Positions 29,967 to 58,452 of a stretch of DNA of 64,000 bases are shown piece by piece. The notes below the pieces were generated by a model. That model searched no databases. It saw only the letters and a program-made list of their open reading frames with translations, and was not told the DNA's origin. A program made the translations under genes and the position numbers. This DNA is from an uncultured Bdellovibrionales bacterium. GTDB lineage: Bacteria; Myxococcota; XYA12-FULL-58-9; JALHOP01. Location: contig CAZAER010000001.1 in assembly GCA_964484195.1 (NCBI GenBank), positions 285,510-349,509 on the forward strand, read 5' to 3'. Each line of letters opens with the position of its first letter. Within the stretch, counting starts at the first letter, position 1.

Positions 29967-30076
29967 GAGCGCTGCCGCTACCTTGGTACTCCCGCGCGGT
30001 CACGACGATTTCCGCAACGTCGCGGTGCGTCCGGCGATAACGTTCGTAACCACAGTTTCGATGCTGGGAGGGCTGT

Positions 30077-30427
30077 ATGCCTCAAGTTGCTCCGACTCCG
30101 CCCCGTTACGTTCAGGCCCCGCCTGCGCCACCGGCGCCGCAGCAAGAGCGTCACGGACTTGCGAACTTCCTGCAAGGCGTAGCGGGAGCGCTGCTCGGCA
30201 TCGGCATGCTGGGCCTTGGCATCGCCGGCATCGGCATCACGGCGGTGATCGCTGGCGACGCCGCCCTCGACTACTTCACCGGCCGCGGCATCATGGGGCA
30301 CTTTGCAAAGCTCATGGGCTGGGAGAGCAAGGCGAATTCGCGCTCGATGGCCGCCCAGCTGGCGGAGGCCTTCAGCCCTTCGCCTCAACGCGCCGGCTAT
30401 CAGATGCGCCCGCAGACACCTTCGTAA
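30077..30427 (+). CDS. Proline-rich small membrane protein (glycine-zipper TM), likely paralog of the upstream gene
   Basis: GGGAGGG RBS. Pro-rich N-terminus (APTPPRYVQAPPAPPAPQQ), then GALLGIGMLGLGIAGIGITAVIAG, then DAALDYFTG, which resembles AADFLADLAGF in the upstream protein. Confidence 0.45.
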   Translation: MPQVAPTPPRYVQAPPAPPAPQQERHGLANFLQGVAGALLGIGMLGLGIAGIGITAVIAGDAALDYFTGRGIMGHFAKLMGWESKANSRSMAAQLAEAFSPSPQRAGYQMRPQTPS

Positions 30428-30440
30428 GCCGCGCACCCCC

Positions 30441-30899
30441 GTGCTCCACATCGTCCTCTTCCAGCCTGAGATCCCGCAGAACACTGGGAACGTCGGGCGC
30501 TTGTGTGCCGTGACGCGCGCTCGCCTGCACCTGGTGCATCCGCTCGGGTTCGAGGTCACCGACAAACACTTGAAGCGTGCCGGTATGGACTACTGGCGCT
30601 CGCTCGACGTCCATCATCACGAAGACTGGCGGGCGTTCCGCGATAGCAGACTCGGGCCCAAGCGCCTCTGGCTCTTCACCACCAAGGCCGAGCAGACGCA
30701 CTGGGACGTTCGCTTCGAAGACGACGATGGTCTGGTGTTCGGGCGCGAAACCAGCGGTGCGCCGGATTGGCTGCACGACGAGCTCTCCGCCACGCGGGTG
30801 ACCATTCCGCGCTTCAACACCGAGATGCGCTCGCTGAACCTCTCGACCGCCGTAGGAGTCGCGGCGTACGAGGCGCTGCGTCAGCTGCATCACCCCTGA
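30441..30899 (+). CDS. trmL: tRNA (cytidine/uridine-2'-O-)-methyltransferase TrmL (SpoU-TrmD fold)
   Basis: GTG start gives VLHIVLFQPEIPQNTGNVGRLCAVT, which aligns with the E. coli TrmL N-terminus ([25 protein letters not shown]). The 152 aa length fits. Confidence 0.8.
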   Translation: MLHIVLFQPEIPQNTGNVGRLCAVTRARLHLVHPLGFEVTDKHLKRAGMDYWRSLDVHHHEDWRAFRDSRLGPKRLWLFTTKAEQTHWDVRFEDDDGLVFGRETSGAPDWLHDELSATRVTIPRFNTEMRSLNLSTAVGVAAYEALRQLHHP

Positions 30900-30979
30900 G
30901 TGTGCCGTCCTTGCACCGGCTCGAGGCCGAACGCGGACACTCTTGCCTGCGATAACGTTAGCGAATCAGGGAGCCACGC

Positions 30980-31825
30980 GTGAACGTTGCCGCTTCAGAC
31001 ACCCGCATCAGCGGCTTCACGTTCCTGCCGGAGCCCGCGCCCAAATTGCCCGCCCTGGCCACCACTCCGCCAGGCGCGCTCGCCGGCCAGCTCCATGACC
31101 GGCTCACCTCGCTCATTTGCTTTCGCGGTAAGGCTGCCTCCTCGTTCGGGTGGACGGAGCAGTACGTCAGCAAGCGTATCGACTCGTGGGTCACGCGGGG
31201 CAGTGCCGTGGCCGCCGGCGCGGTGATGGGCGGGCTACTTCTCGCCGACCCTGCGTGCACGTGGCCGCTGCTTGGCTTGCTTGCCGGTGGCGCCGCGGCG
31301 CTGGGCGCTTTCACCGCGCGCGTCGGATTCCTGCTCCACCATACGGCGGCTTCGCTCGTGTGCAGCTTTCGTCCCTTGGAGCCCGAGCAGCTCGCCTTCC
31401 TCGACGAGGTTCGGCAGACGGGGACGCCGCTCGATAAGGCGATCGCCGCGGTGTCTGCCAAGCGGTACCTCCAGAGTATCAAGCAGCGAAACGTGCGAGG
31501 AGACGCCGCGATCGGTCTGCTCGAGCAGATCGCAAAGACCGAGCTGCCGCCCGATATGATCGCCTCTGGTGTCCGCATCGTCGATGCCGTGACCCAATTC
31601 TTCGATCCGGCGACAGGCGAGCCCCTGACGGTGATCGGCGCGACGCGGGGTGAGCGCATCATCGCGCTTCTAGATAAGTTGAGTGACCCGGAGCTGCGCT
31701 CCGTCGCAGCGTACCTCGACCCGATCGTGTTCGCGGACCACGGGCGCATGTGGTGGGATTTGCCCAGCCAACAGACACAGGTCGGCGCCAAACTGTCGAT
31801 CGTGCGGCCACCCCGCGACGGGTAA
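30980..31825 (+). CDS. Hypothetical membrane protein (281 aa)
   Basis: AGGGAG RBS plus GTG. Two predicted TM helices (AVAAGAVMGGLLLA and LLGLLAGGAAALGAF). No known domain. Confidence 0.5.
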   Translation: MNVAASDTRISGFTFLPEPAPKLPALATTPPGALAGQLHDRLTSLICFRGKAASSFGWTEQYVSKRIDSWVTRGSAVAAGAVMGGLLLADPACTWPLLGLLAGGAAALGAFTARVGFLLHHTAASLVCSFRPLEPEQLAFLDEVRQTGTPLDKAIAAVSAKRYLQSIKQRNVRGDAAIGLLEQIAKTELPPDMIASGVRIVDAVTQFFDPATGEPLTVIGATRGERIIALLDKLSDPELRSVAAYLDPIVFADHGRMWWDLPSQQTQVGAKLSIVRPPRDG

Positions 31826-31975
31826 AACTCCCGACAAATCAGCGCCTTGTGCCCGTCGTTCGAAATGCACGCACGGCAGCGCTGCGCCTTTGCCTATGCC
31901 GCGCCGAGCCGTTATGGTCGACCCGTTCGAGCCCCATGCCTACGCGGCCTGCGCGCCGCCTCTTAGAGAAGGTTC

Positions 31976-35758
<3,783 letters not shown>

Positions 35759-35767
35759 GCACGTTTC

Positions 35768-36817
35768 GTGAGCACTGCCGGGCGCTACTCCGTCATCAAC
35801 GTACGTCGCGCCTGGTACGTGCTTTGCGAGTCGTCGGAGCTCCGTGACCGTCCGCTCAAGCGGGCGCTGTTCGACGTGCCGCTCGCGGTGTTTCGCGGTG
35901 CGGCTGGCGAGCCGGTGGCGCTGGTCGACCGCTGCGCTCACCGCAACGTGCCGATCTCGGGCGGGCGTGTGGTGCACGGCGAGATCGAGTGCCCCTACCA
36001 CGGCTGGCGTTTCGACCGCGAAGGCGTGTGCCGCAACGTCCCGGCGCTGCTCGACGAGAAGGGCTCCTCCAAGGCGCGCCGCGTCGCACGTTATCCCACG
36101 GTGGAGCGTCAGGGCCTGGTGTGGGCATGGGGCGATCCGGATAACGAGCCGGGCGTGGTCGAGCCCTACGTGGTGCCGCATCTCGCCGATAGCCGCTATG
36201 GCAGCGTCCGCTACAACGCGACCTTCGAGGCGACCTTGCACGCGACCGCCGAGAACATCCTCGATGTGCCGCATACGGCGTTCCTCCATCGCGGGCTTTT
36301 TCGCGGCGCCGGCAAGCGCAATGTCATCACCGCCAACCTCCGGCGTGATGCCGCGTCCGTCGAGGCGGACTACGTCGGCGAGCCGCGACCGTCTGGTCTC
36401 ATCGGCAAGCTCCTCGCGCCGCAGGGTGGCACGGTCCAGCACGTCGACCGCTTCATGCTGCCTTCCATCGCGCAAGTGGAGTACGCGCTCGGCGACAGCA
36501 GCCACGTGTTGATCACCAACCTGCTCACGCCGGTGTCGGATTTCGTGACCGCGATGTTCGCCATCGTGAGCTACAGGCTGCCGATCGGCGGCAAGCTCGT
36601 GGGGCGCATCCTCGAGCCGCTGGCGAGGCGTATCGTGCAACAGGACGCCGAAGTGCTCGCGGAGCAGACACGCAACGTCAAAGCGTTCGGCGGCGAGCGC
36701 TTCGTGTCGACGGACGTCGATCTCTTGGGGACGCACATCTTGCGGCTCCTCAAACATGCCGAGCGCGGCGAAGCACAAGAAGCCGGCGAGCTCGGCTCGG
36801 TTCGACTCGAGGTGTGA
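35768..36817 (+). CDS. Rieske [2Fe-2S] non-heme iron oxygenase (VanA/PaO-like alpha subunit; possible O- or N-demethylase)
   Basis: Rieske ligands CAHRNVPIS...CPYHGWRF. Mononuclear Fe motif ENILDVPHTAFLH. About 349 aa, similar to VanA-type class IA oxygenases. Confidence 0.8.
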   Translation: MSTAGRYSVINVRRAWYVLCESSELRDRPLKRALFDVPLAVFRGAAGEPVALVDRCAHRNVPISGGRVVHGEIECPYHGWRFDREGVCRNVPALLDEKGSSKARRVARYPTVERQGLVWAWGDPDNEPGVVEPYVVPHLADSRYGSVRYNATFEATLHATAENILDVPHTAFLHRGLFRGAGKRNVITANLRRDAASVEADYVGEPRPSGLIGKLLAPQGGTVQHVDRFMLPSIAQVEYALGDSSHVLITNLLTPVSDFVTAMFAIVSYRLPIGGKLVGRILEPLARRIVQQDAEVLAEQTRNVKAFGGERFVSTDVDLLGTHILRLLKHAERGEAQEAGELGSVRLEV

Positions 36818-36818
36818 T

Positions 36819-37568
36819 GTGCTCCATCTCGTTGACGTCGAGAAGCGCTACGACGGCGTCGTGGCGCTCGAGAAGATCTCGCTCGAGCTCGAGCGCGGAG
36901 CCTCGCTCGCCATCGTCGGCACCAGCGGCTCGGGGAAGTCGACGCTTCTCCGGCTGGTGAACGGCATCGTCTGGCCGGACAGCGGTAGCGTCCACATCGA
37001 GGGCGAGCTGCTGTCGCCGGCGAGCGCCCGGCGGCTGCGCCAGCGCATGGGCTACGTCATTCAGGACGGCGGCCTGTTTCCGCACCTCACGGCGCGCGAG
37101 AACGTCATGTTGCTGCCGCGGCACCTCGGCTGGGATACCCAGCGCATCGCCACGCGGACCAACGAGCTCGCCGAGCTCATGCGGCTCAAGCCGGAGATGC
37201 TCGACCGCTATCCGGCGCAACTCTCGGGTGGTCAGCAGCAGCGCGTCGGCCTCATGCGCGCTCTCTTCCTTTCGCCTGGTCTCTTGCTGCTCGACGAGCC
37301 GCTCGGCGCGCTCGACCCGACCACGCGCGTCACTCTGCAAGACGAGCTGCGCTCGATCTTCGACGTGGTGCGCTGCACGGTGTTGCTCGTGACCCACGAC
37401 TTCGCCGAGGCAGGGGCGCTGGCGCGCGAGATCATGGTCATGCATCGCGGCGCCGTGCAGCAGCGCGGGACGCTCACCGAGATCCTCAAGCACCCCGCGA
37501 CCGAGCGCGTCGCCGGCATGGTGCGGGCGGAGCGGCGGCGCGTCGAAGTGCTCGGAGCGGCCACGTGA
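36819..37568 (+). CDS. ABC transporter ATP-binding protein (glycine betaine/choline/proline-betaine type)
   Basis: Walker A GTSGSGKST. Signature LSGGQQQRV. Walker B LLLLDEP. H-loop. The GTG start lies 1 nt after the Rieske gene stop. Confidence 0.8.
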   Translation: MLHLVDVEKRYDGVVALEKISLELERGASLAIVGTSGSGKSTLLRLVNGIVWPDSGSVHIEGELLSPASARRLRQRMGYVIQDGGLFPHLTARENVMLLPRHLGWDTQRIATRTNELAELMRLKPEMLDRYPAQLSGGQQQRVGLMRALFLSPGLLLLDEPLGALDPTTRVTLQDELRSIFDVVRCTVLLVTHDFAEAGALAREIMVMHRGAVQQRGTLTEILKHPATERVAGMVRAERRRVEVLGAAT

Positions 37569-39001
37569 TTACGCTGGTCGTCGCGCTGGCGATGGGCGCC
37601 ACTCCGGTACGGGTCGGCTCCAAGGCGTTCACCGAGTCGGTGATCATCGGCGAGATTGCGCGCCAGACCCTCGAGGCCCACGGAGTCGTCGCGACACACC
37701 AGCGTGAGCTCGGCGGGACGGCGATTGCTTGGAAGGCGCTGCTCGGTGGCGAGATCGACGTCTATCCCGAGTACAGCGGCACCATCGTCCAGGAGCTCAT
37801 CCCGGGAGCAGGGGATCTCGAGACCGCTCTCGCCAAGCACGGCGTGGTCATCGCGGCCGACTTGGGCTTCGATGACAGCTACGGCATCGGGGTGCGACCC
37901 GAGCTCCCGGTACGCAGGATCTCCGAGCTCGCCGACGCACCAGGGCTGCGCGTCGGTCTATCGAACGAGTTCCTCGACCGTCAGGATGGCTGGCGGGGCC
38001 TCGCGCGCGTCTATGACCTCGGGGCGCTCCAGGTGCGCGGGCTGCAACACGCTTTAGCGTACAGCGCCCTCGAGCACGGAACGCTCGACGCCATCGATGT
38101 CTATACGACCGACGCCGAGATTGCGCGCATCGGCGTGCGAGTTCTCGAGGACGACAAGCACTACTTCCCGAGCTATCGCGCGCTGCTCTTGGCGCGCAGC
38201 GATCTCTCCGCCGACGCTCGCGCCGTGCTCAAGAAGCTGACCGCGACCATCGACGTCGAGCGCATGCGCAAGCTGAACGGCCGGGCCGCCATCGATCATG
38301 TGAGCGAGGATCGTGCAGCCGGCGAGCTCGTCGAGAGTGTCTTCAGCGTGATGACGCAGCAGGCGCAGCCCACGGTGTGGTCGCGCTTCTGGATGAACTT
38401 GAAGGCACACTTGGGCCTCACGGCGCTCTCTCTGTTCGCGGCGATTCTCGTGGGTGTGCCACTCGGCGTCGTGGCGGCGAAGACGCGGCGGATCGGCGGT
38501 AGCATCGTGGGGCTCACCGGCGTCTTGCAGACGGTGCCGTCGCTCGCCTTGCTGGTGTTCATGATTCCGCTCTTCGGCATCGGTTATTTGCCCGCGGTGA
38601 TGGCGCTCTTCGTCTACAGCTTGCTGCCCATCGTGCAGAACACCTACGTCGGAGTGCACGACTTGCCATTGCCACTGCACGAGTCGGCGGTGGCGTTGGG
38701 GCTTGGTCCGCTGGTGCGGACGTTTCGTATCGAGCTGCCGCTCGCCATGCCGGCCATCGTCGCGGGGGTGCGCACCTCGGCGGTCATCAACGTCGGCACC
38801 GCGACTTTGGGCGCGTTGATTGGCGCCGGTGGTTTCGGCCAGCCCATTCTGACCGGCATTCGTTTGAGCAACGTCGCGTTAGTGCTCGAAGGCGCGGTGC
38901 CGGCGGCGCTCCTCGCCATGGCGGCGCAGGGGCTACTCACGGTGGCCGAACGATGGCTGGTGCCGCGCGGGCTGCGGCTAGCGGCGGAGGCGCGCGAATG
39001 A
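37565..39001 (+). CDS. Fused ABC transporter substrate-binding domain (OpuAC-type) and permease
   Basis: N-terminal OpuBC/OpuCC-like binding domain (KAFTESVIIGEIARQ...GEIDVYPEYSGT). C-terminal permease with 5-6 TM helices and an EAA-like loop. The GTG start overlaps the upstream stop (GTGA). Confidence 0.8.
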   Translation: MITLVVALAMGATPVRVGSKAFTESVIIGEIARQTLEAHGVVATHQRELGGTAIAWKALLGGEIDVYPEYSGTIVQELIPGAGDLETALAKHGVVIAADLGFDDSYGIGVRPELPVRRISELADAPGLRVGLSNEFLDRQDGWRGLARVYDLGALQVRGLQHALAYSALEHGTLDAIDVYTTDAEIARIGVRVLEDDKHYFPSYRALLLARSDLSADARAVLKKLTATIDVERMRKLNGRAAIDHVSEDRAAGELVESVFSVMTQQAQPTVWSRFWMNLKAHLGLTALSLFAAILVGVPLGVVAAKTRRIGGSIVGLTGVLQTVPSLALLVFMIPLFGIGYLPAVMALFVYSLLPIVQNTYVGVHDLPLPLHESAVALGLGPLVRTFRIELPLAMPAIVAGVRTSAVINVGTATLGALIGAGGFGQPILTGIRLSNVALVLEGAVPAALLAMAAQGLLTVAERWLVPRGLRLAAEARE

Positions 39002-39435
39002 GAGTGGTCCTGCAGCGAGTGCGGTCGGGGTCCGTCAAAGTGGACGGGGAGATCGTCGGGAGCGTCGGTGTGGGCTACGTCGCGCTGGTCGGGATCGCCA
39101 AAGGCGACGCCGAAGCAGCCATCGACGCCATGGCGCAGAAGGTCGCGCAGCTGCGGGTGTTCTCGGACGACGCCGGCAAGATGAACCGCTCGCTCCTCGA
39201 CATCGGCGGCGGCTGCCTGGTGATCTCGCAGTTCACGCTGATTGCGGACACGACGCGCGGCCGCCGGCCGTTCTTCGGCGAGGCCGAGGCGCCGGAGCGT
39301 GCGCGCCTGATGTGCGACCGCTTCGCCGAGGCGCTACGCGGGCAGGGTGTCACGGTCGCCACCGGTCGCTTCGCCGCGGACATGCTGGTCGAGCTCGCAA
39401 ACGATGGTCCTGTCACCATCGTCCTCGACGGCTAG
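38998..39435 (+). CDS. dtd: D-aminoacyl-tRNA deacylase
   Basis: MRVVLQRV...GGCLVISQFTL (SQFTL motif) and the C-terminal GPVT motif. The ATG overlaps the permease stop (ATGA). Confidence 0.85.
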   Translation: MRVVLQRVRSGSVKVDGEIVGSVGVGYVALVGIAKGDAEAAIDAMAQKVAQLRVFSDDAGKMNRSLLDIGGGCLVISQFTLIADTTRGRRPFFGEAEAPERARLMCDRFAEALRGQGVTVATGRFAADMLVELANDGPVTIVLDG

Positions 39436-39452
39436 CCGTCCATCGCCGCGTT

Positions 39453-39827
39453 TTAGGCCTCTCCCGTGTCGCGCAGGACTTCCTTGAAGCGCGCGATGAA
39501 CTCCGCGTCGTTGCCGGTCTTGCACACATATCCGGCCACGCGTGCTTGTTTGGCGCGTGCCGCAAGCTGTGACGCCGGGATGTCGGAGTGAAAGATGATG
39601 CGGAGGCGGGCGTCGTGGTCATGGCTCTTCACCAGACCGGCCAACACCTCACCACTCAACATCGGCATGTTCAGGTTGATCAGCAGCACGTCGGGTTTCT
39701 CGTCCGCTATGGCAAACGCGGTGCCGAGCGAACGATTGCGGGTGACTACCACGTAGCCCGCGGTCTCGAGGCGCGTCTTCGCCGTCTCGGTCGCCGTGGG
39801 GTCGCTGTCGATCACGAGGACTTTCAT
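39453..39827 (-). CDS. Single-domain response regulator (CheY-like receiver)
   Basis: MKVLVIDSD...VLLINLNMP (phospho-acceptor Asp) and a conserved Lys near the C-terminus. Confidence 0.7.
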   Translation of the reverse strand: MKVLVIDSDPTATETAKTRLETAGYVVVTRNRSLGTAFAIADEKPDVLLINLNMPMLSGEVLAGLVKSHDHDARLRIIFHSDIPASQLAARAKQARVAGYVCKTGNDAEFIARFKEVLRDTGEA

Positions 39828-39944
39828 CGAGACTGCGAGTGCCCCCCTGGTCCAACACCTTACGATGACGTTGCTCGATGCGGATCGGCAGCGATGCGCT
39901 TTTCAGATTTCCAGGTCGACGGGGCTGACGAGCTTCGCGGGAGC

Positions 39945-40424
39945 TCACGCTGTCTTGGGGCGTGCGATGGCAGCGACTGTGGCCGATGCTGCGCGCACGT
40001 AGTCGTCTGGTGCGAGCAGGATTTGTGTGCCTCGGACTCCTGCGGAAATGCTGATGAGGTCGAAGAGGACCACCATCTCGTCGACGAACACCGGATAGGC
40101 TTTCTTGGCCGCGAACACGGTGACGCCGCCGCGGATGTAACCGGTGAGTGGCTGGACCTCCTTCAACGGTACGGTGTCTGCTTTGGTGTTCCCACTGGCC
40201 TTCGCCACCAACTTACGGTCGAGCTCGTAGCTCCCAGGAATGACCGCGAAGAAGATGCCGGTGACGTCACCGCGGACGACGAGGGTCTTGAACGTCGCTT
40301 CGGGAGGCATGCCGACCTTGCGGGCCACGGACTCGGCCGAGAGGTCCTCTTCGTCGACCTCGTAGGAGCGCAGAGTGTAGGCGATGCCCTTCACGTCGAG
40401 GGCTCGCATGGCATTGGTTTTCAC
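39945..40424 (-). CDS. ybaK: Cys-tRNA(Pro)/Cys-tRNA(Cys) deacylase YbaK
   Basis: [23 protein letters not shown] aligns with the E. coli YbaK N-terminus. A GTG start at 40424 overlaps the upstream stop (GTGA). TTG at 40439 and ATG at 40409 are alternative starts. Confidence 0.75.
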
Positions 40425-41785
40425 GACGTCGGCTCGCAATCGATGGCGTTCTTTGCCGAGCGGCGGCCGTTACCTTGTGGATTCACCCACACCAACACGC
40501 GGTCGACGACATCGCCAGTGAACGCCCGCGGCGGTGCGCACGCGATGCCGGGCGTCGGTAGCGCGGGTTGCGGCCGGTCGGCGCTGACGATGATGCGCAG
40601 GGGCGACGTTGGCGGAGCGGCAGTCAGGGCTCGGGCGAGCTCGTCCGCGTCCGCGTAGCGCTCGAGCGGACGGCCACCGGCGTAGAGCGCGGGGGCTTCG
40701 TAGCCGCCGACGATGAGGATGCGCTGCGCTTTTCCCGCGGTGCGCAGCGGGTCGATGATGTTGTGTTGGCCATCCGAGAGCGTGGCGATGGCGAGCGCCA
40801 CGGCGTTCAGGCCCCAGAAGGCTCTGCGTATCGCCAAGCGCGACTCGGCGAGCGCCGCGCCCAAGAGAACGAACGCGAGCGGCAAGACGGAGAAGACGAA
40901 GCGCTCCTCCTTGTGAGGAACGAGCGAATGAATCGACACGAACGCGACCAGGCTGCTGGTCGTCAGGACATCGGCGCGCGTCGCGTGCCACAACGGCTTT
41001 GCCAACCAGTAGGTGAGCGGCGGCAGGGTCAGCAAGAGGAGGAACACGAGATAGGTAAACCACGGCGCATGACCGAAGCGTGACGAGTGCTCGGCATTGA
41101 AGGCGACGTAGTCGGTGAGGGTCGCGAGGAAGCGGCCATGGGACGAGAGATCTATAAGTCCTTGCATAAGCAAGATCGCGACCCCGCCAACCGCCATCGC
41201 GGACGCGTCTTTGATGCGGCGCTCCCACAGCGCCCAACCCACCGCAGTGATCGCGATGATGCCGACCTGGAAGCGCAACATGCACGCGGCGCCGAGAAGC
41301 AGGCCCGCGACCAAGCCGCGGCGCGGGAGCCGTGTCATCGCGAGCCCCCAGACGAGCGGCGGAATCGCGGCGACCTCGATCAAGGCGCGCGTCGACAGGC
41401 GTGGCACCAGGGCCTCGCAGGCCATGAGCCATGCGGCCGCGCGGGCAGCCGGCTCACCGAATCGCGACGCCGTGAGACGGTAGACTCCGGGAATCGCGAG
41501 CAGCGACCAGAGCCCGAGCGTGACGTACACCCCGCGCACCAACCAGCTGGGGTCATCGATGCCCAACCCATGCACCCCGCGCATCACCAGCGCGAGGAAG
41601 CGACTGAAGACCACCGAGCGGATGGCGGACGCTGGAGCGGTCTCCCCGGTCATGACCTCCCGCCACGCGGGCTCCAGCGCATAGCGGTAGTCGTCGCTCG
41701 CGAAAAATCCATACCCGATGAGCGCTGCCACGAGGCGTAGCACCGCGCCGGCGAGGAGCGGCGGAAGCCAAGGCGGGTGCTTCAT
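40421..41785 (-). CDS. GT-C fold membrane glycosyltransferase (ArnT/PMT/GT87-like polyprenyl-phosphate-sugar dependent transferase)
   Basis: Multi-TM protein with an acidic first-loop motif FASDDYRYALEP typical of GT-C transferases. ATG at 41785 overlaps the upstream stop (ATGA). The ORF-track N-terminal extension to 42457 is an Arg-rich overlap with the upstream gene and is rejected. Confidence 0.6.
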   Translation of the reverse strand: MKHPPWLPPLLAGAVLRLVAALIGYGFFASDDYRYALEPAWREVMTGETAPASAIRSVVFSRFLALVMRGVHGLGIDDPSWLVRGVYVTLGLWSLLAIPGVYRLTASRFGEPAARAAAWLMACEALVPRLSTRALIEVAAIPPLVWGLAMTRLPRRGLVAGLLLGAACMLRFQVGIIAITAVGWALWERRIKDASAMAVGGVAILLMQGLIDLSSHGRFLATLTDYVAFNAEHSSRFGHAPWFTYLVFLLLLTLPPLTYWLAKPLWHATRADVLTTSSLVAFVSIHSLVPHKEERFVFSVLPLAFVLLGAALAESRLAIRRAFWGLNAVALAIATLSDGQHNIIDPLRTAGKAQRILIVGGYEAPALYAGGRPLERYADADELARALTAAPPTSPLRIIVSADRPQPALPTPGIACAPPRAFTGDVVDRVLVWVNPQGNGRRSAKNAIDCEPTS

Positions 41786-45377: not shown

Positions 45378-46088
45378 TTAGTTCTCTGCCGAAACCTCAT
45401 CGGGCCGTTGTCGAAAGCGATAGCCTACACCACGGAGCGTTTCCACGTAGTGTCCGGCGATGCCCAGCTTTTCGCGCAGGCGTTTCACGTGGGTGTCGAC
45501 GGTGCGGGTCGTGACCTCCGCGTCGATTCCCCAAACGTCGGAGAGCAGAGTGTCGCGCGTCTGCACCCGACCCTTGCGGGCGAGCAGGGTGGTGAGCAGC
45601 CGGAACTCGAGGGCGGTGAGTCGGATCTCTTCTTCGCCGACCCAGACGCGGTGACCCGGCGAATCGACCCGCAGGTCGCCGAACCGTAGCTCGGTGTCCT
45701 TGGGCTCGTCGGCGGCGACACGGCGGAGGATGGCGCGCACCCGCAGCATCAGCTCACGGACGCTGAAAGGTTTGGCGACGAAGTCATCGGCCCCGACCTC
45801 GAAGCCGACGACGCGATCGATCTCGTCGTTCTTGGCGGTCAGCATGAGCACCGGGATGCCCTTGGTGCGCTCGTCGGCGCGCAGGCGGCGGCAGACTTCG
45901 GTGCCGGGCACGTCAGGGAGCATGAGGTCCAAGACCACGAGGTCGGGGAGGGGCTCTTGCCCCGCGAGGCTCAGTGCGCTCGTGCCGTTCAGCGCCGTGC
46001 GGGTCTGAAACCCCTCGCGCTGGAAGTTGTATTCGAGCGTATTGGCGAGGTCCTGCTCGTCTTCGACCACCAAAATCAGTGCCGACAT
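45378..46088 (-). CDS. OmpR/PhoB-family response regulator
   Basis: Receiver domain (LVVLDLMLPD) plus a winged-helix domain (RVDTHVKRLREKL, GVGYRF). ATG at 46088 has a GGGAGG RBS. The ORF-track extension is rejected. Confidence 0.85.
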   Translation of the reverse strand: MSALILVVEDEQDLANTLEYNFQREGFQTRTALNGTSALSLAGQEPLPDLVVLDLMLPDVPGTEVCRRLRADERTKGIPVLMLTAKNDEIDRVVGFEVGADDFVAKPFSVRELMLRVRAILRRVAADEPKDTELRFGDLRVDSPGHRVWVGEEEIRLTALEFRLLTTLLARKGRVQTRDTLLSDVWGIDAEVTTRTVDTHVKRLREKLGIAGHYVETLRGVGYRFRQRPDEVSAEN

Positions 46089-46258
46089 GCTTGCCTCCCG
46101 GAAGGCGCTTTCAGGGCTTTCCTGCGCCCCAATTGCCCGTTCGCGGTGACGCCTTTGTGACAGCGGAACAACGTCTTGGGACGCTGCGATCGTCTCTGTC
46201 ACATTGACCAGAACGTCTTATAGAGCCTTCGTACCGTTCCGGAAAGGCTCGAAGACCT

Positions 46259-46570
46259 CTATTGCCGCCGCTGAGGCATCGGGACGACGTTTCCGCCGCC
46301 GAAGTCGACCTTGGAAATGTGGCAGGAATCGGGATGCCGGATGAGCTCGGCCATCGCCGACCGTTGGTCTGCCGCGTTCAAGCCGGTGACGTTGAGGGTT
46401 CGGGTCGCTTGGTCGTAACGGACGCTCTTGGGGTCGACGTCGCCACCGCGCATGATGTCCCCGAAGTGCTTGTTGGCGTTCTGAACTGGGGTGCCAGCCC
46501 CCGGCCAGCCAGCGGTCGAGCCACCCAACGGGGCGCCCAGCTGGGCAAGCGGCTTACAGGAATCACTCAC
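46259..46570 (-). CDS. Hypothetical small protein (104 aa) immediately downstream of purA
   Basis: GGAGG RBS 5 nt upstream of a GTG start. No known domain. Confidence 0.4.
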   Translation of the reverse strand: MSDSCKPLAQLGAPLGGSTAGWPGAGTPVQNANKHFGDIMRGGDVDPKSVRYDQATRTLNVTGLNAADQRSAMAELIRHPDSCHISKVDFGGGNVVPMPQRRQ

Positions 46571-46621
46571 GGGGACCTCCAGAAACAACGCCCGATCTTA
46601 CACGATCTTGGCTCGATACGG

Positions 46622-47902
<1,281 letters not shown>

Positions 47903-49213
47903 CTACTCCCGATCCGCGATGCCGGCGCGCTCGAAGAGCGCATCGACGTGCTTGAAATAATGGTCGAGCGAGAAGGCGCGATCGACGACGTTCGCGGGGA
48001 TGGCCTTGACCGCGTCTTCGTCCGCCAAAGCGGTGCGGAAGTCTTTGGCCTGGTTTTCCCAGACGCGCATGGCGGCGCGCTGCACCGAGGCGTAGGCGAC
48101 CTGACGCTCGAGACCCGCCTCGAGCAGCACCCCGAGCACGCTTTGGCTGAACACCAAGCCGCGCGTCGAATCGAGATTCTGCTTCATGCGCTCGGGGTAA
48201 ACGCGCAACCCGTTCACCAGGTCGAGCATCTTCAAGGTCATGTAGTGCGCGAGATGGAACGCATCGGGGAAGGCCACGCGCTCGACCGAGGAGTGACTGA
48301 TGTCGCGCTCGTGCCACAAGGCGACGTCTTCGGCGCCCGCTACCATGTAGCCGCGCAGGAGGCGCGCCATACCCGCGATGCGCTCGCTGGTGATCGGATT
48401 GCGCTTGTGCGGCATCGCGGACGAGCCGGTCTGGCCCGCGGCGAACGGCTCTTCGGCTTCTCGGACCTCGGTGCGCTGCATGGCGCGGATGTCGACGGCG
48501 AAACGCTCGAGGCCGCTGCCGTAGACCGCGAGGATCGAGAAGATGAAGGCGTGGCGGTCGCGCGGCACCACCTGGGTCGCCACCGGCTCGGCGAAGAGGT
48601 CGAGGTTCTCGAGGATGCTGCGCTCGAGCGCAGGGTCGCTCTGCGAAAAGCTGCCGACCGCGCCCGACATCTTGCCGTGCGCAGCCTCCATGCGCGCGAC
48701 GCGCAGGCGCTCGAGATGGCGTTGCACCTCACTGTACCAACCAGCGAGCCGCAGGCCGAAGGTGGTCGGCTCGGCGTGGACACCGTGGGTGCGGCCGACG
48801 CAGGGCGTGAGCTTGTGCTCACGGGCACGCCGCGCAATCGCGAGACCGAGCTCTTTCACCGTGTCGACGAGCACTTCGAGTGACTCGCTGATCGCCATCG
48901 CGAGCGCGGTGTCGACGACGTCGCTCGAGGTCAAGCCGCGATGCAGGTGCCGGCGGGCAGGCTCGCCGACAATCTCGCCGAGCGCCCGCACGAAGGCGAC
49001 CACGTCGTGGTTCGTCACCTTCTCGAGCTCGCGCACGCGGTCGGCCGAGGGTGCCTTCGCCTTGTCGCGGATCGCCTGCATCTCGTCGGCGGGGACTTGG
49101 CCTCGGGCGGCCCAGGCTTCGCTGGCTGCGACCTCGACGCGGGTCCAGCGTTCCATTTGCGCGGCTTCACCCCAGATGCGACGCATGGCTTCGGTTTCGT
49201 AGCGACTGATCAT
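47903..49213 (-). CDS. purB: Adenylosuccinate lyase
   Basis: Fumarate lyase signature SSAMPHKRNP. The N-terminus matches PurB. Confidence 0.95.
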   Translation of the reverse strand: MISRYETEAMRRIWGEAAQMERWTRVEVAASEAWAARGQVPADEMQAIRDKAKAPSADRVRELEKVTNHDVVAFVRALGEIVGEPARRHLHRGLTSSDVVDTALAMAISESLEVLVDTVKELGLAIARRAREHKLTPCVGRTHGVHAEPTTFGLRLAGWYSEVQRHLERLRVARMEAAHGKMSGAVGSFSQSDPALERSILENLDLFAEPVATQVVPRDRHAFIFSILAVYGSGLERFAVDIRAMQRTEVREAEEPFAAGQTGSSAMPHKRNPITSERIAGMARLLRGYMVAGAEDVALWHERDISHSSVERVAFPDAFHLAHYMTLKMLDLVNGLRVYPERMKQNLDSTRGLVFSQSVLGVLLEAGLERQVAYASVQRAAMRVWENQAKDFRTALADEDAVKAIPANVVDRAFSLDHYFKHVDALFERAGIADRE

Positions 49214-50469
49214 GGCTCACCCTGGGCGATGTCGCGGCGGAAGTGCTTGCCGGCGAACTTCACCATGTCGACACCCTCGTAGGCGCGCGCCCGAGCTTCA
49301 CGCAGCGTCGCGGCGCTGGCGACGACCGCGGCGATTCGGCCCCCGTTGGTGACGAGCTTGTCTCCGTCGTGTTTGGTGCCGGCGTGATCGAGCCAGCGAT
49401 CCGGGGCGTCGAGGTTGCGATCGATGGTGATGGCGTCGCCCTTGCGCGGCTCCCCGGGGTAGCCCTCGGCGCTCACGACGATGGCGATGGTGGTGCGGCG
49501 ATCGACGACCAGCTTGAAGTCGGCAAGCTTGCCGGCCGCGGTCGCCTGGCAGAGTCGCGTCAGCTCACCCTTGCCGAGGCGCGGCAAGATGGCTTGCGCT
49601 TCGGGATCGCCGAGGCGCGCGTTGAACTCGAGCAGCTTGATCTCGCCGGTGGGGGCGATCATGACGCCCGCATAGAGAAAGCCGACGTAAGGCGTTTCGC
49701 GGCGCTTGAGCTCACGCACCACGGGCATGACGATCTCTTCGCGCACGTGCTGCTCACGCCGGCCGTCGATCACCGGGTTCGGGCTCACCGCGCCCATGCC
49801 GCCGGTATTCGGGCCGCGGTCGCTGTCGTTGATGCGCTTGTGGTCGCGCGCGTGCGGGAGCGCCACCAAGTGCTCGCCATCGCAGGCATAGAAGAGCGAG
49901 GCTTCGACGCCCGCGAGCCGCTCCTCGAGGACGACGGTGCGTCCAGCGTCGCCGAGGCTGCCGGCGAGATACTCGCGCGCGGCTTCGACGCAGCCTTCGC
50001 GCGTGTCAGGCAGGACGACGCCTTTGCCGGCGCAGAGTCCGTCCGCTTTGACGACCGGCAGGCCAGGCATGTCCTCCATCGCGGTCGCCAGCTCGTCGGC
50101 GCGCTTCACGATGCGGAAGGCGGGTGAATCGACTTCGGCGGCGTAGGCGATTTCGCGCATGAACGCCTTCGACCCTTCGAGCTGGGCGGCGGCGCGGCTC
50201 GGGCCGCAGCAGGGGATGTTCGCGCTCTTCAGGGCGTCGGCGAGGCCGGCGACCAGCGCCCCCTCTGGACCCGGCACGACCAGGTCGACTTTTTCCTCGC
50301 GGGCGAGAGTCACCAGGCTTTCGACGTCATCGACTCGGACGGGGATGCAGCGCGCGTGAGCGGCGATCCCTGGATTGCCCGGCGCGGCGATGAGCTCGGC
50401 GCCGTCGTTGGCGAGCGCTCTGCAGATGGCGTGCTCGCGCCCGCCTTGTCCGACGACCAGGATTTTCAC
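49210..50469 (-). CDS. purD: Phosphoribosylamine--glycine ligase
   Basis: MKILVVGQGGREHA and the ATP-grasp core. The stop overlaps the purB ATG (ATGA). Confidence 0.95.
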   Translation of the reverse strand: MKILVVGQGGREHAICRALANDGAELIAAPGNPGIAAHARCIPVRVDDVESLVTLAREEKVDLVVPGPEGALVAGLADALKSANIPCCGPSRAAAQLEGSKAFMREIAYAAEVDSPAFRIVKRADELATAMEDMPGLPVVKADGLCAGKGVVLPDTREGCVEAAREYLAGSLGDAGRTVVLEERLAGVEASLFYACDGEHLVALPHARDHKRINDSDRGPNTGGMGAVSPNPVIDGRREQHVREEIVMPVVRELKRRETPYVGFLYAGVMIAPTGEIKLLEFNARLGDPEAQAILPRLGKGELTRLCQATAAGKLADFKLVVDRRTTIAIVVSAEGYPGEPRKGDAITIDRNLDAPDRWLDHAGTKHDGDKLVTNGGRIAAVVASAATLREARARAYEGVDMVKFAGKHFRRDIAQGEP

Positions 50470-50517
50470 TGCGTCTTCTTAAGGCCAGGGCCCGTAAGGC
50501 ACAACTGACCTGGGCCG

Positions 50518-52143
50518 TTAATGTTTGAAGTGGCGCCGATTGGTGAAGACCATGGCGATCCCCGCGGCGTCACACGCCGCGATGGAGTCCGCGTCGCGCT
50601 TCGAGCCGCCCGGCTGGACGATCGCCACGATGCCCGCCTTCTGCGCGAGCTTCACGACGTCGTCGAATGGGAAAAACGCATCCGATCCGAGGAAGGCGCC
50701 CTTCGAGGCTTCGCCGGCCTTGCGCATCGCTTGCTCCATGGCGTCGACGCGGCTCATGAAGCCGGCGCCGGCCCCGAGCAAGCGGCGGCGCTTGGTGATG
50801 GAGACCGCGTTCGATTTCAGGAGCATCGCGGCACGCATGGCGAAGGCAAGCTCGTCCTGCCAGCCGGGATCGAGGGTGCGCTTGGTCACGGTTTTCCAGG
50901 TCGTCGGTAGGGCGAGGCCAGGGTCGGCAGTCTCCACCAGCATGCCGCCGCCGACGCGGTGCGCGTGCCAAGCAGGCTCCGGTGATCCGATGGGGACCTG
51001 GAAGAGGCGCAGGTCAGCCTTTTTCTCGAGCTCGGCGCGCGCGTCGGGCGCGAAGCCCGGTGCCACGATGCACTCGATGAAGAGCTTTGCGTCCTTGATA
51101 GCGGACACGGTCGCCATCTCGACGATGGTGTTGAAACCGATGATGCCGCCGAAGGCCGAGACCGGGTCGCCGGCCAACGCTTGCACGAAGGCCTCGACTT
51201 GGCTCGCTGCCTCGGCGAGGCCGCAGGGATTGGTGTGCTTGACGATGGCGCAACCCGTGCCCGCGAGCTGGAAGACGGCCCGGTAGGCCGCGTCCATGTC
51301 GAGATAGTTGTTGTAGGAGAGCTGCTTGCCGGACAGCACCGAGCCGTTGGCGACGCCGTTGCTCTCGCCGGTGGCGCGATAGAGGGCGCCGCCTTGGTGC
51401 GGGTTTTCGCCGTAGCGCAGGACTTCGACGCGGTCGAAGATGGCCAAGCGCTCGGGCAGTGGCGGCGGCGCATCGAGGTCGGGGACGCGCATCTCGCTGG
51501 TGACGAGCTTACTGTCGGCGACGTCTTTGGCGTACCACTCGGCGATGGCGAGGTCGTATTTCGCGATGACCTGGAAAGCTTTCGCGGCGAGCTCGCGACG
51601 CACGTCGGAAGGCACGAGGCCCGCCCGCGACACCAAGTCGACGACGCGGCTGTAGTCCGCGGGGTCCACCAAAACGGTCACGCCGCCGGCCTCGTTTTTG
51701 GCCGACGCGCGCACCAAGGTCGGGCCGCCGATGTCGACGTTCTCGACCATTTCGTGGCGCGGCGCGTTCCGCGCGAGCGCTTGCTCGAACGGGTAGAGGT
51801 TGCAGACGACCAGATCGATGGGCGGGTAAGCGTTGTCCTTGAGATCTTTTTCGTGCTCGGGGAGCCGGCGATCCGCGAGGATTCCGGCGTGGATCTTCGG
51901 GTGCAGCGTCTTGACGCGACCGTCGAGCACTTCTTTTGCGCCCGTGAAGTTCTCGATGCGCGTCACTTTCACGCCGGCATCTTCGATGGCCTTGGCGGTA
52001 CCGCCCGAGGCCAAGATTTCGACCTCGTGTGCGGCGAGGCCTTTGGCGAGGTCGATGAGGCCAGTCTTGTCGAACACCGACAAGAGCGCGCGGCGAACCT
52101 TGCCGGGCGCAGGTGAGAGGTTGGCGGTGGCGTCGACTCGCAT
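50518..52143 (-). CDS. purH: Bifunctional AICAR transformylase / IMP cyclohydrolase
   Basis: VRRALLSVFDKTG (MGS-like domain) plus the AICARFT domain. The true start may lie a few codons inside the listed ORF. Confidence 0.9.
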   Translation of the reverse strand: MRVDATANLSPAPGKVRRALLSVFDKTGLIDLAKGLAAHEVEILASGGTAKAIEDAGVKVTRIENFTGAKEVLDGRVKTLHPKIHAGILADRRLPEHEKDLKDNAYPPIDLVVCNLYPFEQALARNAPRHEMVENVDIGGPTLVRASAKNEAGGVTVLVDPADYSRVVDLVSRAGLVPSDVRRELAAKAFQVIAKYDLAIAEWYAKDVADSKLVTSEMRVPDLDAPPPLPERLAIFDRVEVLRYGENPHQGGALYRATGESNGVANGSVLSGKQLSYNNYLDMDAAYRAVFQLAGTGCAIVKHTNPCGLAEAASQVEAFVQALAGDPVSAFGGIIGFNTIVEMATVSAIKDAKLFIECIVAPGFAPDARAELEKKADLRLFQVPIGSPEPAWHAHRVGGGMLVETADPGLALPTTWKTVTKRTLDPGWQDELAFAMRAAMLLKSNAVSITKRRRLLGAGAGFMSRVDAMEQAMRKAGEASKGAFLGSDAFFPFDDVVKLAQKAGIVAIVQPGGSKRDADSIAACDAAGIAMVFTNRRHFKH

Positions 52144-52746
52144 CTAGCTCTCCAAGGGTTTGTTCAATCGCTCGACGAACAGGCGCACGGCGCGCGGGTA
52201 GATGACGTGCTCGACTTCGTTGAGAATGCGCTGTGCTAGGCCTTCGGGACCTTCGTCGCCGCGGACCTCGAGCGAGCCTTGCAGGATGACCGGACCGGTG
52301 TCGACGCCGCCGTCGACGAAGTGCACGGTCGCACCGACGACGCTGCGCCCGGCTTGCCATTGGCGCTCGGCGCCATGGAGGCCGGGGAACTCGGGTAGGA
52401 GCGACGGGTGGATGTTTAGGATCCGTCCGCTGAAGCGGGCGAGGAACGAGGGGCTCAAGATGCGCAGGTAGCCCGCGAGCAGCAGGTGCTCGGCGCCGAG
52501 CGTCGCCAGCAAGGCGAGCAAGGCTTCTTCGTGGGCCTCGCGTTTCATGCCCTTGCTGACCAGCACATGGCCGGGAACACCATACTCAGCGGCGCGCTCG
52601 AGGACGCCTGCGCCTTCGACGTTGGTCACGACGCCGACCACTTGGCCGCCGACGTATCCACGCTTGAATGCGCGCATCAGCGCGTCGGCGTTCGAGCCGC
52701 GGCCCGACGCCAGGATGGCAAAGCGCGGGTGGCTAGGTGCGGGCAT
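52144..52746 (-). CDS. purN: Phosphoribosylglycinamide formyltransferase
   Basis: FAILASGRGSN and the formyltransferase motifs NIHPSLLP and HFVDGGVDTGPVI. ATG at 52746 overlaps the purM 3' end by 14 nt. The ORF-track extension is rejected. Confidence 0.85.
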   Translation of the reverse strand: MPAPSHPRFAILASGRGSNADALMRAFKRGYVGGQVVGVVTNVEGAGVLERAAEYGVPGHVLVSKGMKREAHEEALLALLATLGAEHLLLAGYLRILSPSFLARFSGRILNIHPSLLPEFPGLHGAERQWQAGRSVVGATVHFVDGGVDTGPVILQGSLEVRGDEGPEGLAQRILNEVEHVIYPRAVRLFVERLNKPLES

Positions 52747-53899
52747 ACCCGAGCTCGACTCCGTGAGGCCCAGCTTGGATGGCCCCGACCTCGAGCCAAC
52801 CTTGATGCCCGGCCAGGGCCTTGGGGGTGGTGAGCGCCTGGCGCAGCTTCGCCGCGTCTTCGGGGCCAACGACGATGCAATAGCCGAGCCCCATGTTGAA
52901 GGTGCTCGCCATCTCGGTCCACGCGACGTTTCCGGTCTTCTGCACCAGGCCGAAGATTGCGGGCATGTGGTAACGCTCGGGGTCGACGACGACGCGCACT
53001 TCGTTTTTCGTGAGCTTGCCCAAGCGCCCGAGGAGGCCGCCGCCGGTGACGTGGGCGCTCGCCTTCACTTTGATTTGCTGCATGACCTCGAGCACCGGCC
53101 GCACGTAGAGGCGCGTCGGGGTCAAGAGCTCGGCGCCCAGTGTCCGCTCGAGCGCACCGATATGATCGGTGAGGCGCAGCCCGCCCATGTCGATCAGCGC
53201 TTTGCGCGCGAGCGACAGGCCGTTCGAGTGGATGCCGCTGGAGGTGAGCGCGAAGATGACGTCGCCCGCTTTCACGGAGTTTGCGTCCGGCAGCCGCGCT
53301 TCGTCGGCGATACCCACGGCGAAGCCCGCGAGATCGAAATCACCGGGTGGGTAGAGCCCGGGCATCTCCGCGGTCTCACCACCCAAGAGCACGCAACCGA
53401 CCTCGCGACAGGCATTGGCGATGCCACGCACGATGGGGGTCAGCTCAGACGCCTCGAGCTTGCCGGTCGCGATGTAGTCGAGAAAGAAAATGGGCCGCGA
53501 GCCGGAGGGCAAGAGATCGTTGACGTTCATGCCCACGAGGTCTTGGCCGAGACCCTCGTAGCTCTTCATGTCGCGCGCGACGATGAGCTTGGTACCCACG
53601 CCGTCGCAGGCGGCGGAAATGAGCGGTCGCGAGATGCCGCTGAAGTCGGGACGGAAGAGCCCCGCGTAGGCCGTGGTGTGGGGAACGACGCCGCTGTTGT
53701 GCGTCGACTTGGCGAGCGAGGCGATACCTTCGACGAAAGCATCGGCAGCGGCGATGTCGACGCCGGCGCGCTTGTACGACAGGCTGCCGCCAGCCTCGTC
53801 ACGCTCTTTGGCGCGGCTGCGGTCGTGCGGCTCTTCGGAGCCCTCGACGTGGTGCATGCCGCTCGCTTCGGGCGACATACCTTCGGGGCGCTGAGTCAT
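52733..53899 (-). CDS. purM: Phosphoribosylformylglycinamidine cyclo-ligase (AIR synthetase)
   Basis: SLSYKRAGVDI...DGVGTKL, with PurM N- and C-domains. ATG at 53899 overlaps the purF stop (ATGA). There is a 30-40 aa N-terminal extension relative to E. coli PurM. Confidence 0.9.
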   Translation of the reverse strand: MTQRPEGMSPEASGMHHVEGSEEPHDRSRAKERDEAGGSLSYKRAGVDIAAADAFVEGIASLAKSTHNSGVVPHTTAYAGLFRPDFSGISRPLISAACDGVGTKLIVARDMKSYEGLGQDLVGMNVNDLLPSGSRPIFFLDYIATGKLEASELTPIVRGIANACREVGCVLLGGETAEMPGLYPPGDFDLAGFAVGIADEARLPDANSVKAGDVIFALTSSGIHSNGLSLARKALIDMGGLRLTDHIGALERTLGAELLTPTRLYVRPVLEVMQQIKVKASAHVTGGGLLGRLGKLTKNEVRVVVDPERYHMPAIFGLVQKTGNVAWTEMASTFNMGLGYCIVVGPEDAAKLRQALTTPKALAGHQGWLEVGAIQAGPHGVELGYART

Positions 53900-57524: not shown

Positions 57525-58201
57525 GCGAGTCCTTGCGAGATGGCGTCACGGGCGCCTTCGAAGATGAGCGCGCCGTCGTTGCTGCCGATGTGCGGGTCGG
57601 TGGCGCGGTCGGGGTGCGGCATGACGCCGAAGACGCGGCCGCTGCTGTCGAGCATGGCGGCGGCGTTGCCGATCGATCCGTTCATGTTGCGGTCGTAGAC
57701 GAATGGCACGCTGTCCGCGATAGCGTCCCAGCCGTCGGGATGATAGTAGTTGCCTTCGCCGTGGGCCATCGGCCAGCGCAGCTTGGTGCCGCGCGGCACG
57801 CGCAAGAGCCAGGGGGACTTCTGCTTGGTCTCGCGGGCCTCGACGGTGACCCACTTGTGCTTGAAGCCCGGCGGGTTGTTGTAGGTGAGGGCGCCTGGCA
57901 AGAGGCCGGCCTCGACCAAGATCTGGAAGCCGTTGCAAACACCGATGACCAGACCACCCTTGGCCACGAACTCGGGCAGGGCGCGCATCGCCGGGGCGTA
58001 ACGGGCGAGCATGCCGGCGCGCCAGTAATCACCGTAGGAGAAGCCACCGGGCACACCGACGACCTTGGTGTCCGCTGGAGCGGTTTCGCGCGAGTCGACA
58101 TACACCGGAGCGAAGCCGGCGCGCTCGAATGATTCGGCGATATCGCGGTCGCCGTTGGACCCTGGGAAGACGATGACGGCCGCTTTCGGGCGAGCGTTCA
58201 C
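57521..58201 (-). CDS. purQ: Phosphoribosylformylglycinamidine synthase subunit PurQ (glutaminase)
   Basis: AVIVFPGSNGDRD and GVCNGFQ (catalytic Cys). The GTG start overlaps the purS stop (GTGA). Confidence 0.9.
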   Translation of the reverse strand: MNARPKAAVIVFPGSNGDRDIAESFERAGFAPVYVDSRETAPADTKVVGVPGGFSYGDYWRAGMLARYAPAMRALPEFVAKGGLVIGVCNGFQILVEAGLLPGALTYNNPPGFKHKWVTVEARETKQKSPWLLRVPRGTKLRWPMAHGEGNYYHPDGWDAIADSVPFVYDRNMNGSIGNAAAMLDSSGRVFGVMPHPDRATDPHIGSNDGALIFEGARDAISQGLA

Positions 58202-58452
58202 GTCCCCTCCACCCGAGCCGTGTAGGTCTCGAGGCTCGGGTTCACGAGCAGGCGCTTGCAGAGGTCATCGACGGTGCGCTTGGCCTCGTCGGGGCTGCGG
58301 GCCTCGACGTCCATCGACAGGTAGCGGCCCACCTGGTGGACCTTCACGCCCTTGACCTCGAGGCCTTTGACGGCGCCGTCGACGGCTTCGCCCTGCGGGT
58401 CACGCACGCCGGACTTGGGTTTGACGATGAGCTCGATCTTGAACGTCGCCAT
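58198..58452 (-). CDS. purS: Phosphoribosylformylglycinamidine synthase subunit PurS
   Basis: An 84 aa protein with MATFKIELIVKPKSGVRDPQGEAV, which is PurS-like. Confidence 0.85.
   Translation of the reverse strand: MATFKIELIVKPKSGVRDPQGEAVDGAVKGLEVKGVKVHQVGRYLSMDVEARSPDEAKRTVDDLCKRLLVNPSLETYTARVEGT

Follow-up and report, generated by a model that had tools for sequence, protein, structure and literature searches.

Betaine importers of the OpuA type carry their transmembrane permease domain (TMD) ahead of the substrate-binding domain (SBD), hold the ligand in a Trp-prism pocket and are powered by an ATPase that bears CBS domains, which mediate the gating of uptake by ionic strength. Importers of the EgtUV/EgtU type, described in Streptococcus pneumoniae and Helicobacter pylori, are likewise encoded by two genes, one of which fuses the permease to a binding domain of SBD subcluster F-III (PMC9732360, PMC12922746). 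We analyzed a 64,000-nucleotide (nt) stretch of DNA from an uncultured bacterium of the Myxococcota (contig CAZAER010000001.1 of assembly GCA_964484195.1), referred to here as the window, whose own numbering is used for all positions. In the window, the two genes of a predicted ATP-binding cassette (ABC) importer with the reverse domain order are packed between a Rieske oxygenase gene, which is preceded by odhA, and the D-aminoacyl-tRNA deacylase gene dtd. We read this arrangement, with a probability of roughly 0.55, as a vertically inherited, translationally coupled string of functionally unrelated genes that is confined to one uncultured Myxococcota clade.

All genes of the string are read on the forward strand. 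It starts with odhA (31976 to 35758), which encodes a kgd-type 2-oxoglutarate dehydrogenase of 1,260 amino acids. This is followed by the alpha subunit of a Rieske non-heme-iron oxygenase of the VanA/DdmC class (35768 to 36817; 349 amino acids), an ABC transporter ATPase without CBS domains (36819 to 37568; 249 amino acids) and an OpuAC-type binding domain and permease joined in a single polypeptide behind a short N-terminal hydrophobic leader (37565 to 39001, with the SBD at about 37565 to 38344 and the permease at about 38345 to 39001). The last gene is dtd (38998 to 39435; 145 amino acids). An earlier note on this DNA had described a four-gene operon of Rieske oxygenase, ATPase, OpuAC-permease fusion and dtd, with junctions of 1 nt, GTGA and ATGA. 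The four identities agree with the Pfam and NCBIfam assignments and the junctions lie where they were reported. The Rieske open reading frame (ORF) runs from a GTG start at 35768 to a TGA stop at 36815 to 36817 and is separated by a single spacer base from the GTG start of the ATPase at 36819, while GTGA (37565 to 37568) holds both the stop of the ATPase gene and the start of the SBD-TMD gene, and ATGA (38998 to 39001) both the stop of the latter and the start of dtd. The count of four, however, was too low: given that the TAA stop of odhA lies only 9 nt 5' of the Rieske start, the string comprises at least five genes. For the ATPase, gene calls in relatives favored the GTG at 36819 over a longer ORF starting with an ATG at 36756. 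Reading the sequence, we found Shine-Dalgarno-like motifs within the preceding genes, 4 to 7 nt before the three internal starts (GAGGTG at 36809 to 36814, GGAG at 37554 to 37557 and GGAGG at 38986 to 38990), a placement that fits with translational coupling. No sigma-70 promoter was found in a scan of positions 30000 to 40600, where terminator-like sites occurred at chance level, and an Rfam scan of the entire window returned no RNA family.

The outer genes of the string were assigned with high scores. The odhA product reached 1,771 bits with NF008907 (cut-off, 878) and matched the Pfam families 2-oxoacid_dh, E1_dh, Transket_pyr and OxoGdeHyase_C; in this Myxococcota genome it is the E2-E1 fused form, with the acyltransferase domain at residues 103 to 335. 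Such a fused 2-oxoglutarate dehydrogenase is the Kgd/OdhA form of actinobacteria. The dtd product scored 167 bits with TIGR00256 (cut-off, 101.5) and matched Tyr_Deacylase (PF02580) at positions 1 to 144 of 144 with an E value of 2.2e-51.

To describe how the string is distributed, we compared loci from a genome scan for the Rieske protein (one genome per species, 80 loci) and from a metagenome scan for the transporter (80 further loci), both of which are best-scoring subsets. The close relatives of the Rieske protein share 94, 88, 85, 84, 77 and 71% identity with it, and below them lies a large plateau at 50 to 60% identity, annotated as Myxococcota, Binatia and others. The order odhA-Rieske-ATPase-SBD/TMD-dtd, together with a convergent ybaK gene, is complete in two Myxococcota assemblies, GCA_022842935.1 (locus L001, whose Rieske protein is 88% identical to that of the window) and GCA_039809465.1 (L087). 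On a short contig with a Rieske protein of 71% identity (L172), odhA, the Rieske gene and the ATPase gene are followed by the start of a next gene that overlaps the ATPase stop, where the contig ends. A frameshift-ridden long-read contig (L088), whose Rieske and ATPase fragments were confirmed by tblastn, holds a looser block, with two genes, one of them for an M20 peptidase, between the permease gene and dtd. The position of odhA is conserved in all four loci (L001, L087, L088 and L172). In L001 and L087, a spacer of 1 nt separates the Rieske gene from the ATPase gene; L172 has 2 nt there, and its odhA overlaps the Rieske start by 4 nt.

Outside this group of close relatives, the association was not seen. 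At 59% identity or less, the Rieske gene is placed elsewhere, typically near radA, crcB and a gene for a Cof-type HAD hydrolase (L002 to L004 and L173). Among the 80 genome loci, approximately 20 have Rieske orthologues of 42 to 56% identity; no OpuAC domain is encoded within 10 kb of any of these, and dtd lies near the Rieske gene in L018 alone, with a DUF420 gene between the two. When the ORFs of 16 loci, called with a gene caller based on codon-position GC, were clustered, no neighbor of the Rieske orthologues recurred in three or more of the 16 loci, and no reductase was conserved nearby. Conversely, all 80 metagenome loci with an SBD-first transporter have an ATPase gene directly upstream, and in none of these 80 was a Rieske gene present or dtd adjacent. 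As side observations, radA, crcB and Hydrolase_3 occur repeatedly near the Rieske orthologues of L002, L003, L004 and L173 (53 to 59% identity), which gives no clue to the substrate of the enzyme, and a Steroid_dh/DUF1295 gene lies two genes from the Rieske gene in L002 and L003. The arrangement in L018 (4845 to 7033 of a Polyangiaceae contig), where a Rieske gene of 42% identity, the gene for a DUF420 membrane protein and dtd follow each other in one direction without a transporter gene, was considered as a possible ancestral Rieske-dtd link and dropped, as it is a single case at 42% identity.

The Rieske protein matches the Pfam families Rieske (PF00355, 7.7e-23) and VanA_C (PF19112, 3.5e-12), and VanA_C is the only catalytic-domain family that it matches at an E value of 10 or less. 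Neither the ligands of the Rieske cluster (C56, H58, C75 and H78) nor the motif D166-x2-H169-x4-H174 vary among 39 orthologues. In the alignment with DdmC, H169 and H174 fall on its iron ligands H160 and H165, and the likewise invariant D293 would provide the third, carboxylate ligand of the iron. A profile of the 39 orthologues, searched against all PDB sequences, ranked DdmC first (1e-34), followed by GxtA/SxtT (2e-33 and 2e-31), NdmA (5e-31) and GdmA (1e-29). The entry matched for GdmA, 7QWT, is a guaiacol O-demethylase according to its title and PMC12445004. NdmB, phthalate dioxygenase, KshA and carbazole dioxygenase ranked lower in the same search, and for CntA (1e-9) and Stc2 (4.5e-5) the match was confined to the Rieske domain. 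An AlphaFold2 model of the protein (predicted local distance difference test score, 85.9; predicted template modeling score, 0.87) gave the same picture in Foldseek, with a full-length match to DdmC (3gb4_A; template modeling [TM] scores of 0.78 and 0.80; E value, 3e-23), followed by GxtA/SxtT, NdmA and GdmA. By its sequence, the protein is therefore an intact alpha3 monooxygenase of the VanA/DdmC class that falls outside both the quaternary-amine class of GbcA, Stc2 and CntA and the PaO/Tic55 proteins.

Several other class assignments were examined and rejected. Membership in the GbcA/Stc2/CntA class was dismissed because the affinity does not reach the catalytic domain and trails far behind that to DdmC. 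Neither the window protein nor its close orthologues match the PaO domain (PF08417) at an E value of 10 or less, and a PaO/Tic55-like identity, which the earlier note had named as a possible objection, was discarded on these grounds. Sub-threshold PaO matches (21 and 12.6 bits versus a cut-off of 27) appear only in relatives at 33 to 35% identity. The best NCBIfam model, SdmA (NF052579), covers the N-terminal half only and scores 88 bits, far under its cut-off of 600, so SdmA membership was rejected as well. To look for signs of a change in function, we collected the 105 positions that are conserved (at least 90%) in the outgroup. The window clade differs at four of them, all conservatively (V40A, L41V, L53V and L63I), and thus gives no hint that the enzyme was recruited to a new substrate. 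In line with the earlier note, which had seen no reductase partner, no called protein of the window has the plant-type ferredoxin Cys motif and no reductase was recognized from the translations, as judged by a motif scan and by reading rather than by an exhaustive hidden Markov model scan.

The fusion protein of the importer matches OpuAC (PF04069) at residues 14 to 255 (1.9e-47) and BPD_transp_1 at residues 297 to 466 (6.9e-20). Compared with solved structures, its binding domain is closest to ProX of Archaeoglobus fulgidus (AfProX; 6e-30), with EgtUC second (4e-27), and its permease domain matches OpuABC (3e-18). At each of the ten first-shell positions, the window protein has the same residue as AfProX (K13, F15, Y63, T66, F107, Y111, E145, R149, Y190 and Y214; KFYTFYERYY), including the four-Tyr box for the trimethylammonium group (Y63, Y111, Y190 and Y214) and the carboxylate contacts K13, T66 and R149. 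For the ATPase (ABC_tran, 6.7e-36), the ProV model TIGR01186 is matched at positions 5 to 234 of 363 only, with no CBS match, and the NCBIfam scores for ProV (210 bits), PhnT2 (208 bits) and CysA (203 bits) are nearly equal; its PDB matches are generic nucleotide-binding domains that are uninformative on specificity. The label "betaine-type" that the earlier note gave to the transporter is thus well founded for the binding domain, which groups with betaine binders and has a complete AfProX-type pocket, but for the ATPase, whose sequence is not distinctly ProV-like, it rests on the partner gene.

It follows from the conserved residues that the ATPase and the SBD-TMD protein would suffice on their own to import a trimethylammonium compound of the betaine class that bears a carboxylate. 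As to which one, glycine or proline betaine stands at slightly less than even odds on the basis of the pocket, and the uniform pocket of the family, taken together with its repeated embedding in operons for histidine betaines (see below), gives a similar standing, a little short of even, to hercynine, ergothioneine or selenoneine. Without CBS domains on the ATPase, ionic strength probably does not gate uptake, which would suit a scavenging role rather than osmotic rescue. We also observed, in a comparison that included the homologues P0121 to P0127, that the leader in front of the binding domain (37565 to 37610; MITLVVALAMGAT) consists of about 13 hydrophobic residues without a positively charged n-region, while other members of the family have leaders of 20 to 30 residues, some with Arg or Lys; in the window clade, the signal or anchor on which export of the binding domain depends may be unusually short.

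The family of SBD-first fusions to which the importer belongs is very large, with 7,996 of 8,000 scored candidates matching at an E value of 1e-10 or less. PF04069 is followed by PF00528 in all 120 family members listed, the partner ATPases have 246 to 253 amino acids throughout, and the ten-residue signature is identical in 73 of 79 members, including the window protein and every member linked to ergothioneine (egt) or selenoneine (sen) genes. Two of three distant members, chosen only for their long contigs, lie beside biosynthesis genes for histidine betaines. Across the 80 metagenome loci, the EgtD gene is found in the flank of 14, in 8 of which at most 160 nt separate its start from the permease gene upstream, and EgtB or SenA is encoded at 10. 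The assignments exceed the NCBIfam equivalog cut-offs (EgtD, 356 to 399 bits versus 290.9; EgtB, 538 to 575 versus 360; SenA, 512 to 529 versus 420), and a SenB-EgtD fusion was also seen. In L101, L131 and L152, the transporter genes are located between egtB and egtD, and an unbiased clustering of neighbors returned EgtD as the only recurrent functional neighbor after the ATPase. The egt/sen-associated loci (L089, L091, L093, L101, L102, L104, L124, L131, L135, L137, L139, L146, L148, L149, L152 and L171) are scattered across a neighbor-joining tree of the family built without support values. The window itself encodes no egtB, egtD or senA.

These observations lead us to propose, tentatively and at rather less than even odds, that SBD-first importers without CBS domains are histidine-betaine transporters of environmental bacteria, that is, architecturally reversed counterparts of EgtUV with an AfProX-like pocket. 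In the EgtU papers and the selenoneine preprint, we saw no mention of the association of the family with egt and sen genes, and the preprint notes a selenate transporter as the sole transporter. Our literature search likewise found nothing on SBD-first OpuAC fusions, on betaine-type transporters in egt/sen clusters or on ergothioneine degradation involving a Rieske enzyme. If the family carries hercynine, ergothioneine or selenoneine, bacterial ergothioneine transport would extend far beyond the EgtU type of Firmicutes and Helicobacter, providing a testable candidate for antioxidant exchange between environmental producers and scavengers. This very large uncharacterized family may be a more useful outcome than the locus itself.

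In the reading that we favor for the locus, only the ATPase and the SBD-TMD protein would form a system, namely, a type I ABC importer of two SBD-TMD copies and two CBS-less ATPases. Its tethered binding domain would capture a betaine outside the cell and hand it to the permease, with the four Tyr residues holding the trimethylammonium group and Lys, Thr and Arg holding the carboxylate. The Rieske monooxygenase would be an ordinary orthologue of a stand-alone family widespread in Myxococcota that came to lie beside the transporter in this clade. It would receive its electrons from a reductase encoded elsewhere and probably act on a substrate other than the transported betaine, and dtd would be a housekeeping gene on the shared transcript. 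We regard the Rieske gene, odhA and dtd as unrelated for three reasons: the pairing never recurs independently, the Rieske protein has stayed like its stand-alone orthologues, and dtd is detached in L088. Some observations speak against this reading. The tight coupling, with its 1-nt gap and 4-nt overlaps, is kept down to about 70% protein identity and is compatible with selection for coexpression; demethylation chemistry is plausible, as the characterized enzymes nearest to the Rieske protein (DdmC, GdmA and NdmA/B) remove O- or N-linked methyl groups; a pathway shared with unlinked genes would be compatible with the lack of adjacency elsewhere; and the sample of close relatives with the block is small, consisting of four assemblies that are all metagenome derived. 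If the reading is correct, the locus cautions against over-reading operon structure, as tight translational coupling in a high-GC genome has brought together a tricarboxylic acid cycle enzyme, a transporter, a tRNA-proofreading enzyme and an orphan Rieske oxygenase.

The earlier note had instead seen in the adjacency a route of uptake and oxidative demethylation. In such a module, which would have arisen in this clade, a quaternary amine or another methylated compound enters through the importer and the neighboring Rieske enzyme demethylates it with the help of a reductase encoded elsewhere. The closeness of the Rieske and ATPase genes and the Shine-Dalgarno-like motif, which are conserved across the four assemblies of the relatives, would agree with this, as would the intact cofactor ligands, the betaine-type pocket and the demethylases and hydroxylases (DdmC, GdmA [7qwt] and NdmA/B) among the nearest solved structures. 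However, no second, independent origin of the Rieske-importer pairing was seen in the 160 sampled loci, the orthologues of the Rieske protein otherwise stand alone in unrelated contexts, and the protein is not of the class of known quaternary-amine oxygenases and has undergone no substantive change at its conserved positions in the clade. Nor was a reductase recognized in the 64-kb window by the motif scan and reading of translations, and the string also includes the unrelated housekeeping genes odhA and dtd. The pathway is therefore not supported by the comparison with relatives and we consider it unlikely, an idea weakened rather than disproved. A narrower version, in which the family transports histidine betaines and the Rieske enzyme of this clade oxidizes or N-demethylates the imported compound, asks for both assumptions at once and is a long shot, even though the catabolism of hercynine or ergothioneine would thereby gain its first Rieske enzyme. 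Classical osmoprotection, with OpuA/ProU/OpuC-like accumulation of glycine betaine under osmotic stress, would be in keeping with the OpuAC domain, with the pocket identical to that of AfProX and with ProV as the best NCBIfam model for the ATPase; we rate it as improbable, given that neither the ATPase of the window nor its counterparts in the family have a CBS tail and that the only recurrent functional neighbors of the family are egtD, egtB and senAB rather than osmotic-stress genes. Finally, the Rieske protein could modify lipids or sterols independently of the transporter, as an SdmA-like C-4 sterol demethylase or a PaO/Tic55-like enzyme. This explanation draws on the 88-bit SdmA score, the Steroid_dh gene two genes away in L002 and L003 and the sub-threshold PaO matches of the relatives at 33 to 35% identity. 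It appears very improbable to us, as the SdmA cut-off is 600 bits, the window protein lacks a PaO match and the Steroid_dh neighbor is not conserved at other loci.

The 3' end of the string is marked by a stand-alone response-regulator receiver gene on the reverse strand (39453 to 39827; Response_reg, 8.1e-12), which is convergent with dtd. Also convergent with dtd is a reverse-strand gene for a YbaK/EbsC-type Cys-tRNA(Pro) deacylase (39945 to 40439; TIGR00011, 158.5 bits versus a cut-off of 153.25), so that dtd and ybaK, which encode two stand-alone tRNA-proofreading enzymes, converge within 1 kb. L001, L085, L087 and L088 all retain the dtd-ybaK pair, but what lies between the two genes differs and may be a response-regulator gene, the gene for a 243-amino-acid protein or nothing at all; the response-regulator gene is present in L085 and absent at that position from L001 and L087. 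Farther away, a long codirectional string on the reverse strand (45378 to 59213) contains, as judged from translations only, genes for a phoB-like regulator, purA, purB, purD, purH, purN, purM, purF, purL, purQ, purS and purC. On the forward strand, an ORF of 1,356 amino acids (5383 to 9453) belongs to no family that we recognized and has a codon-position GC of 0.72/0.54/0.74, flatter than that of its neighbors.

Set beside the described systems, the Rieske protein has most in common with DdmC (dicamba O-demethylase), GdmA, the caffeine N-demethylases NdmA/B and SxtT/GxtA, with which it shares the Rieske and VanA_C domains, a length of about 340 to 370 amino acids and the motifs CxH...CxxH and DxxHxxxxH. 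The fold of the model matches DdmC, GdmA, NdmA, SxtT and GxtA over the full length (TM scores of 0.71 to 0.78), although the identity to this class is only 20 to 27% and sequence alignment is limited to the N-terminal 180 to 215 residues or so; a reductase gene of the VanB/NdmD type was not found near the Rieske gene of the window by the motif scan and reading of translations. With GbcA, Stc2 and CntA, the type of oxygenase to be expected beside a betaine transporter, it has the general chemistry of Rieske non-heme-iron enzymes in common, but the match is limited to the Rieske domain and the catalytic domain here is VanA_C.

On the transporter side, OpuA of Lactococcus lactis (PDB 7AHC) and OpuC/ProU are, like the window importer, type I importers with a tethered SBD. 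Unlike OpuA, the window importer has the order SBD-TMD, a Tyr box in its pocket and no CBS domain. EgtU, which is a two-gene system like the window importer and has an SBD of subcluster F-III, to which that of the window also belongs, differs in order too, as its TMD comes first and its SBD is C-terminal. The ergothioneine determinants of SpEgtUC, G244, F293 and Y337, are replaced in the window protein by Phe, Tyr and Phe, as they are in AfProX by F15, Y63 and F107 (PMC9732360). The G244F and F293Y mutants of SpEgtUC are reported to bind ergothioneine still, at about 5 and 0.5 micromolar, respectively, and homologues of the H. pylori type, which lack the SpEgtUC determinants, to import it with lower affinity (PMC9732360). 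The Glu of EgtU that bonds the imidazole N-epsilon-2 (E375) and the Lys/Thr/Arg clamp have equivalents here in E145, K13, T66 and R149, but these are also present in AfProX and do not discriminate between the ligands. AfProX itself (PDB 1SW1/1SW2), which binds glycine betaine and proline betaine, is a free binding protein, whereas the predicted binding domain in the window is fused to the N terminus of the permease; it is nevertheless the best structural match, with every one of its ten first-shell residues retained.

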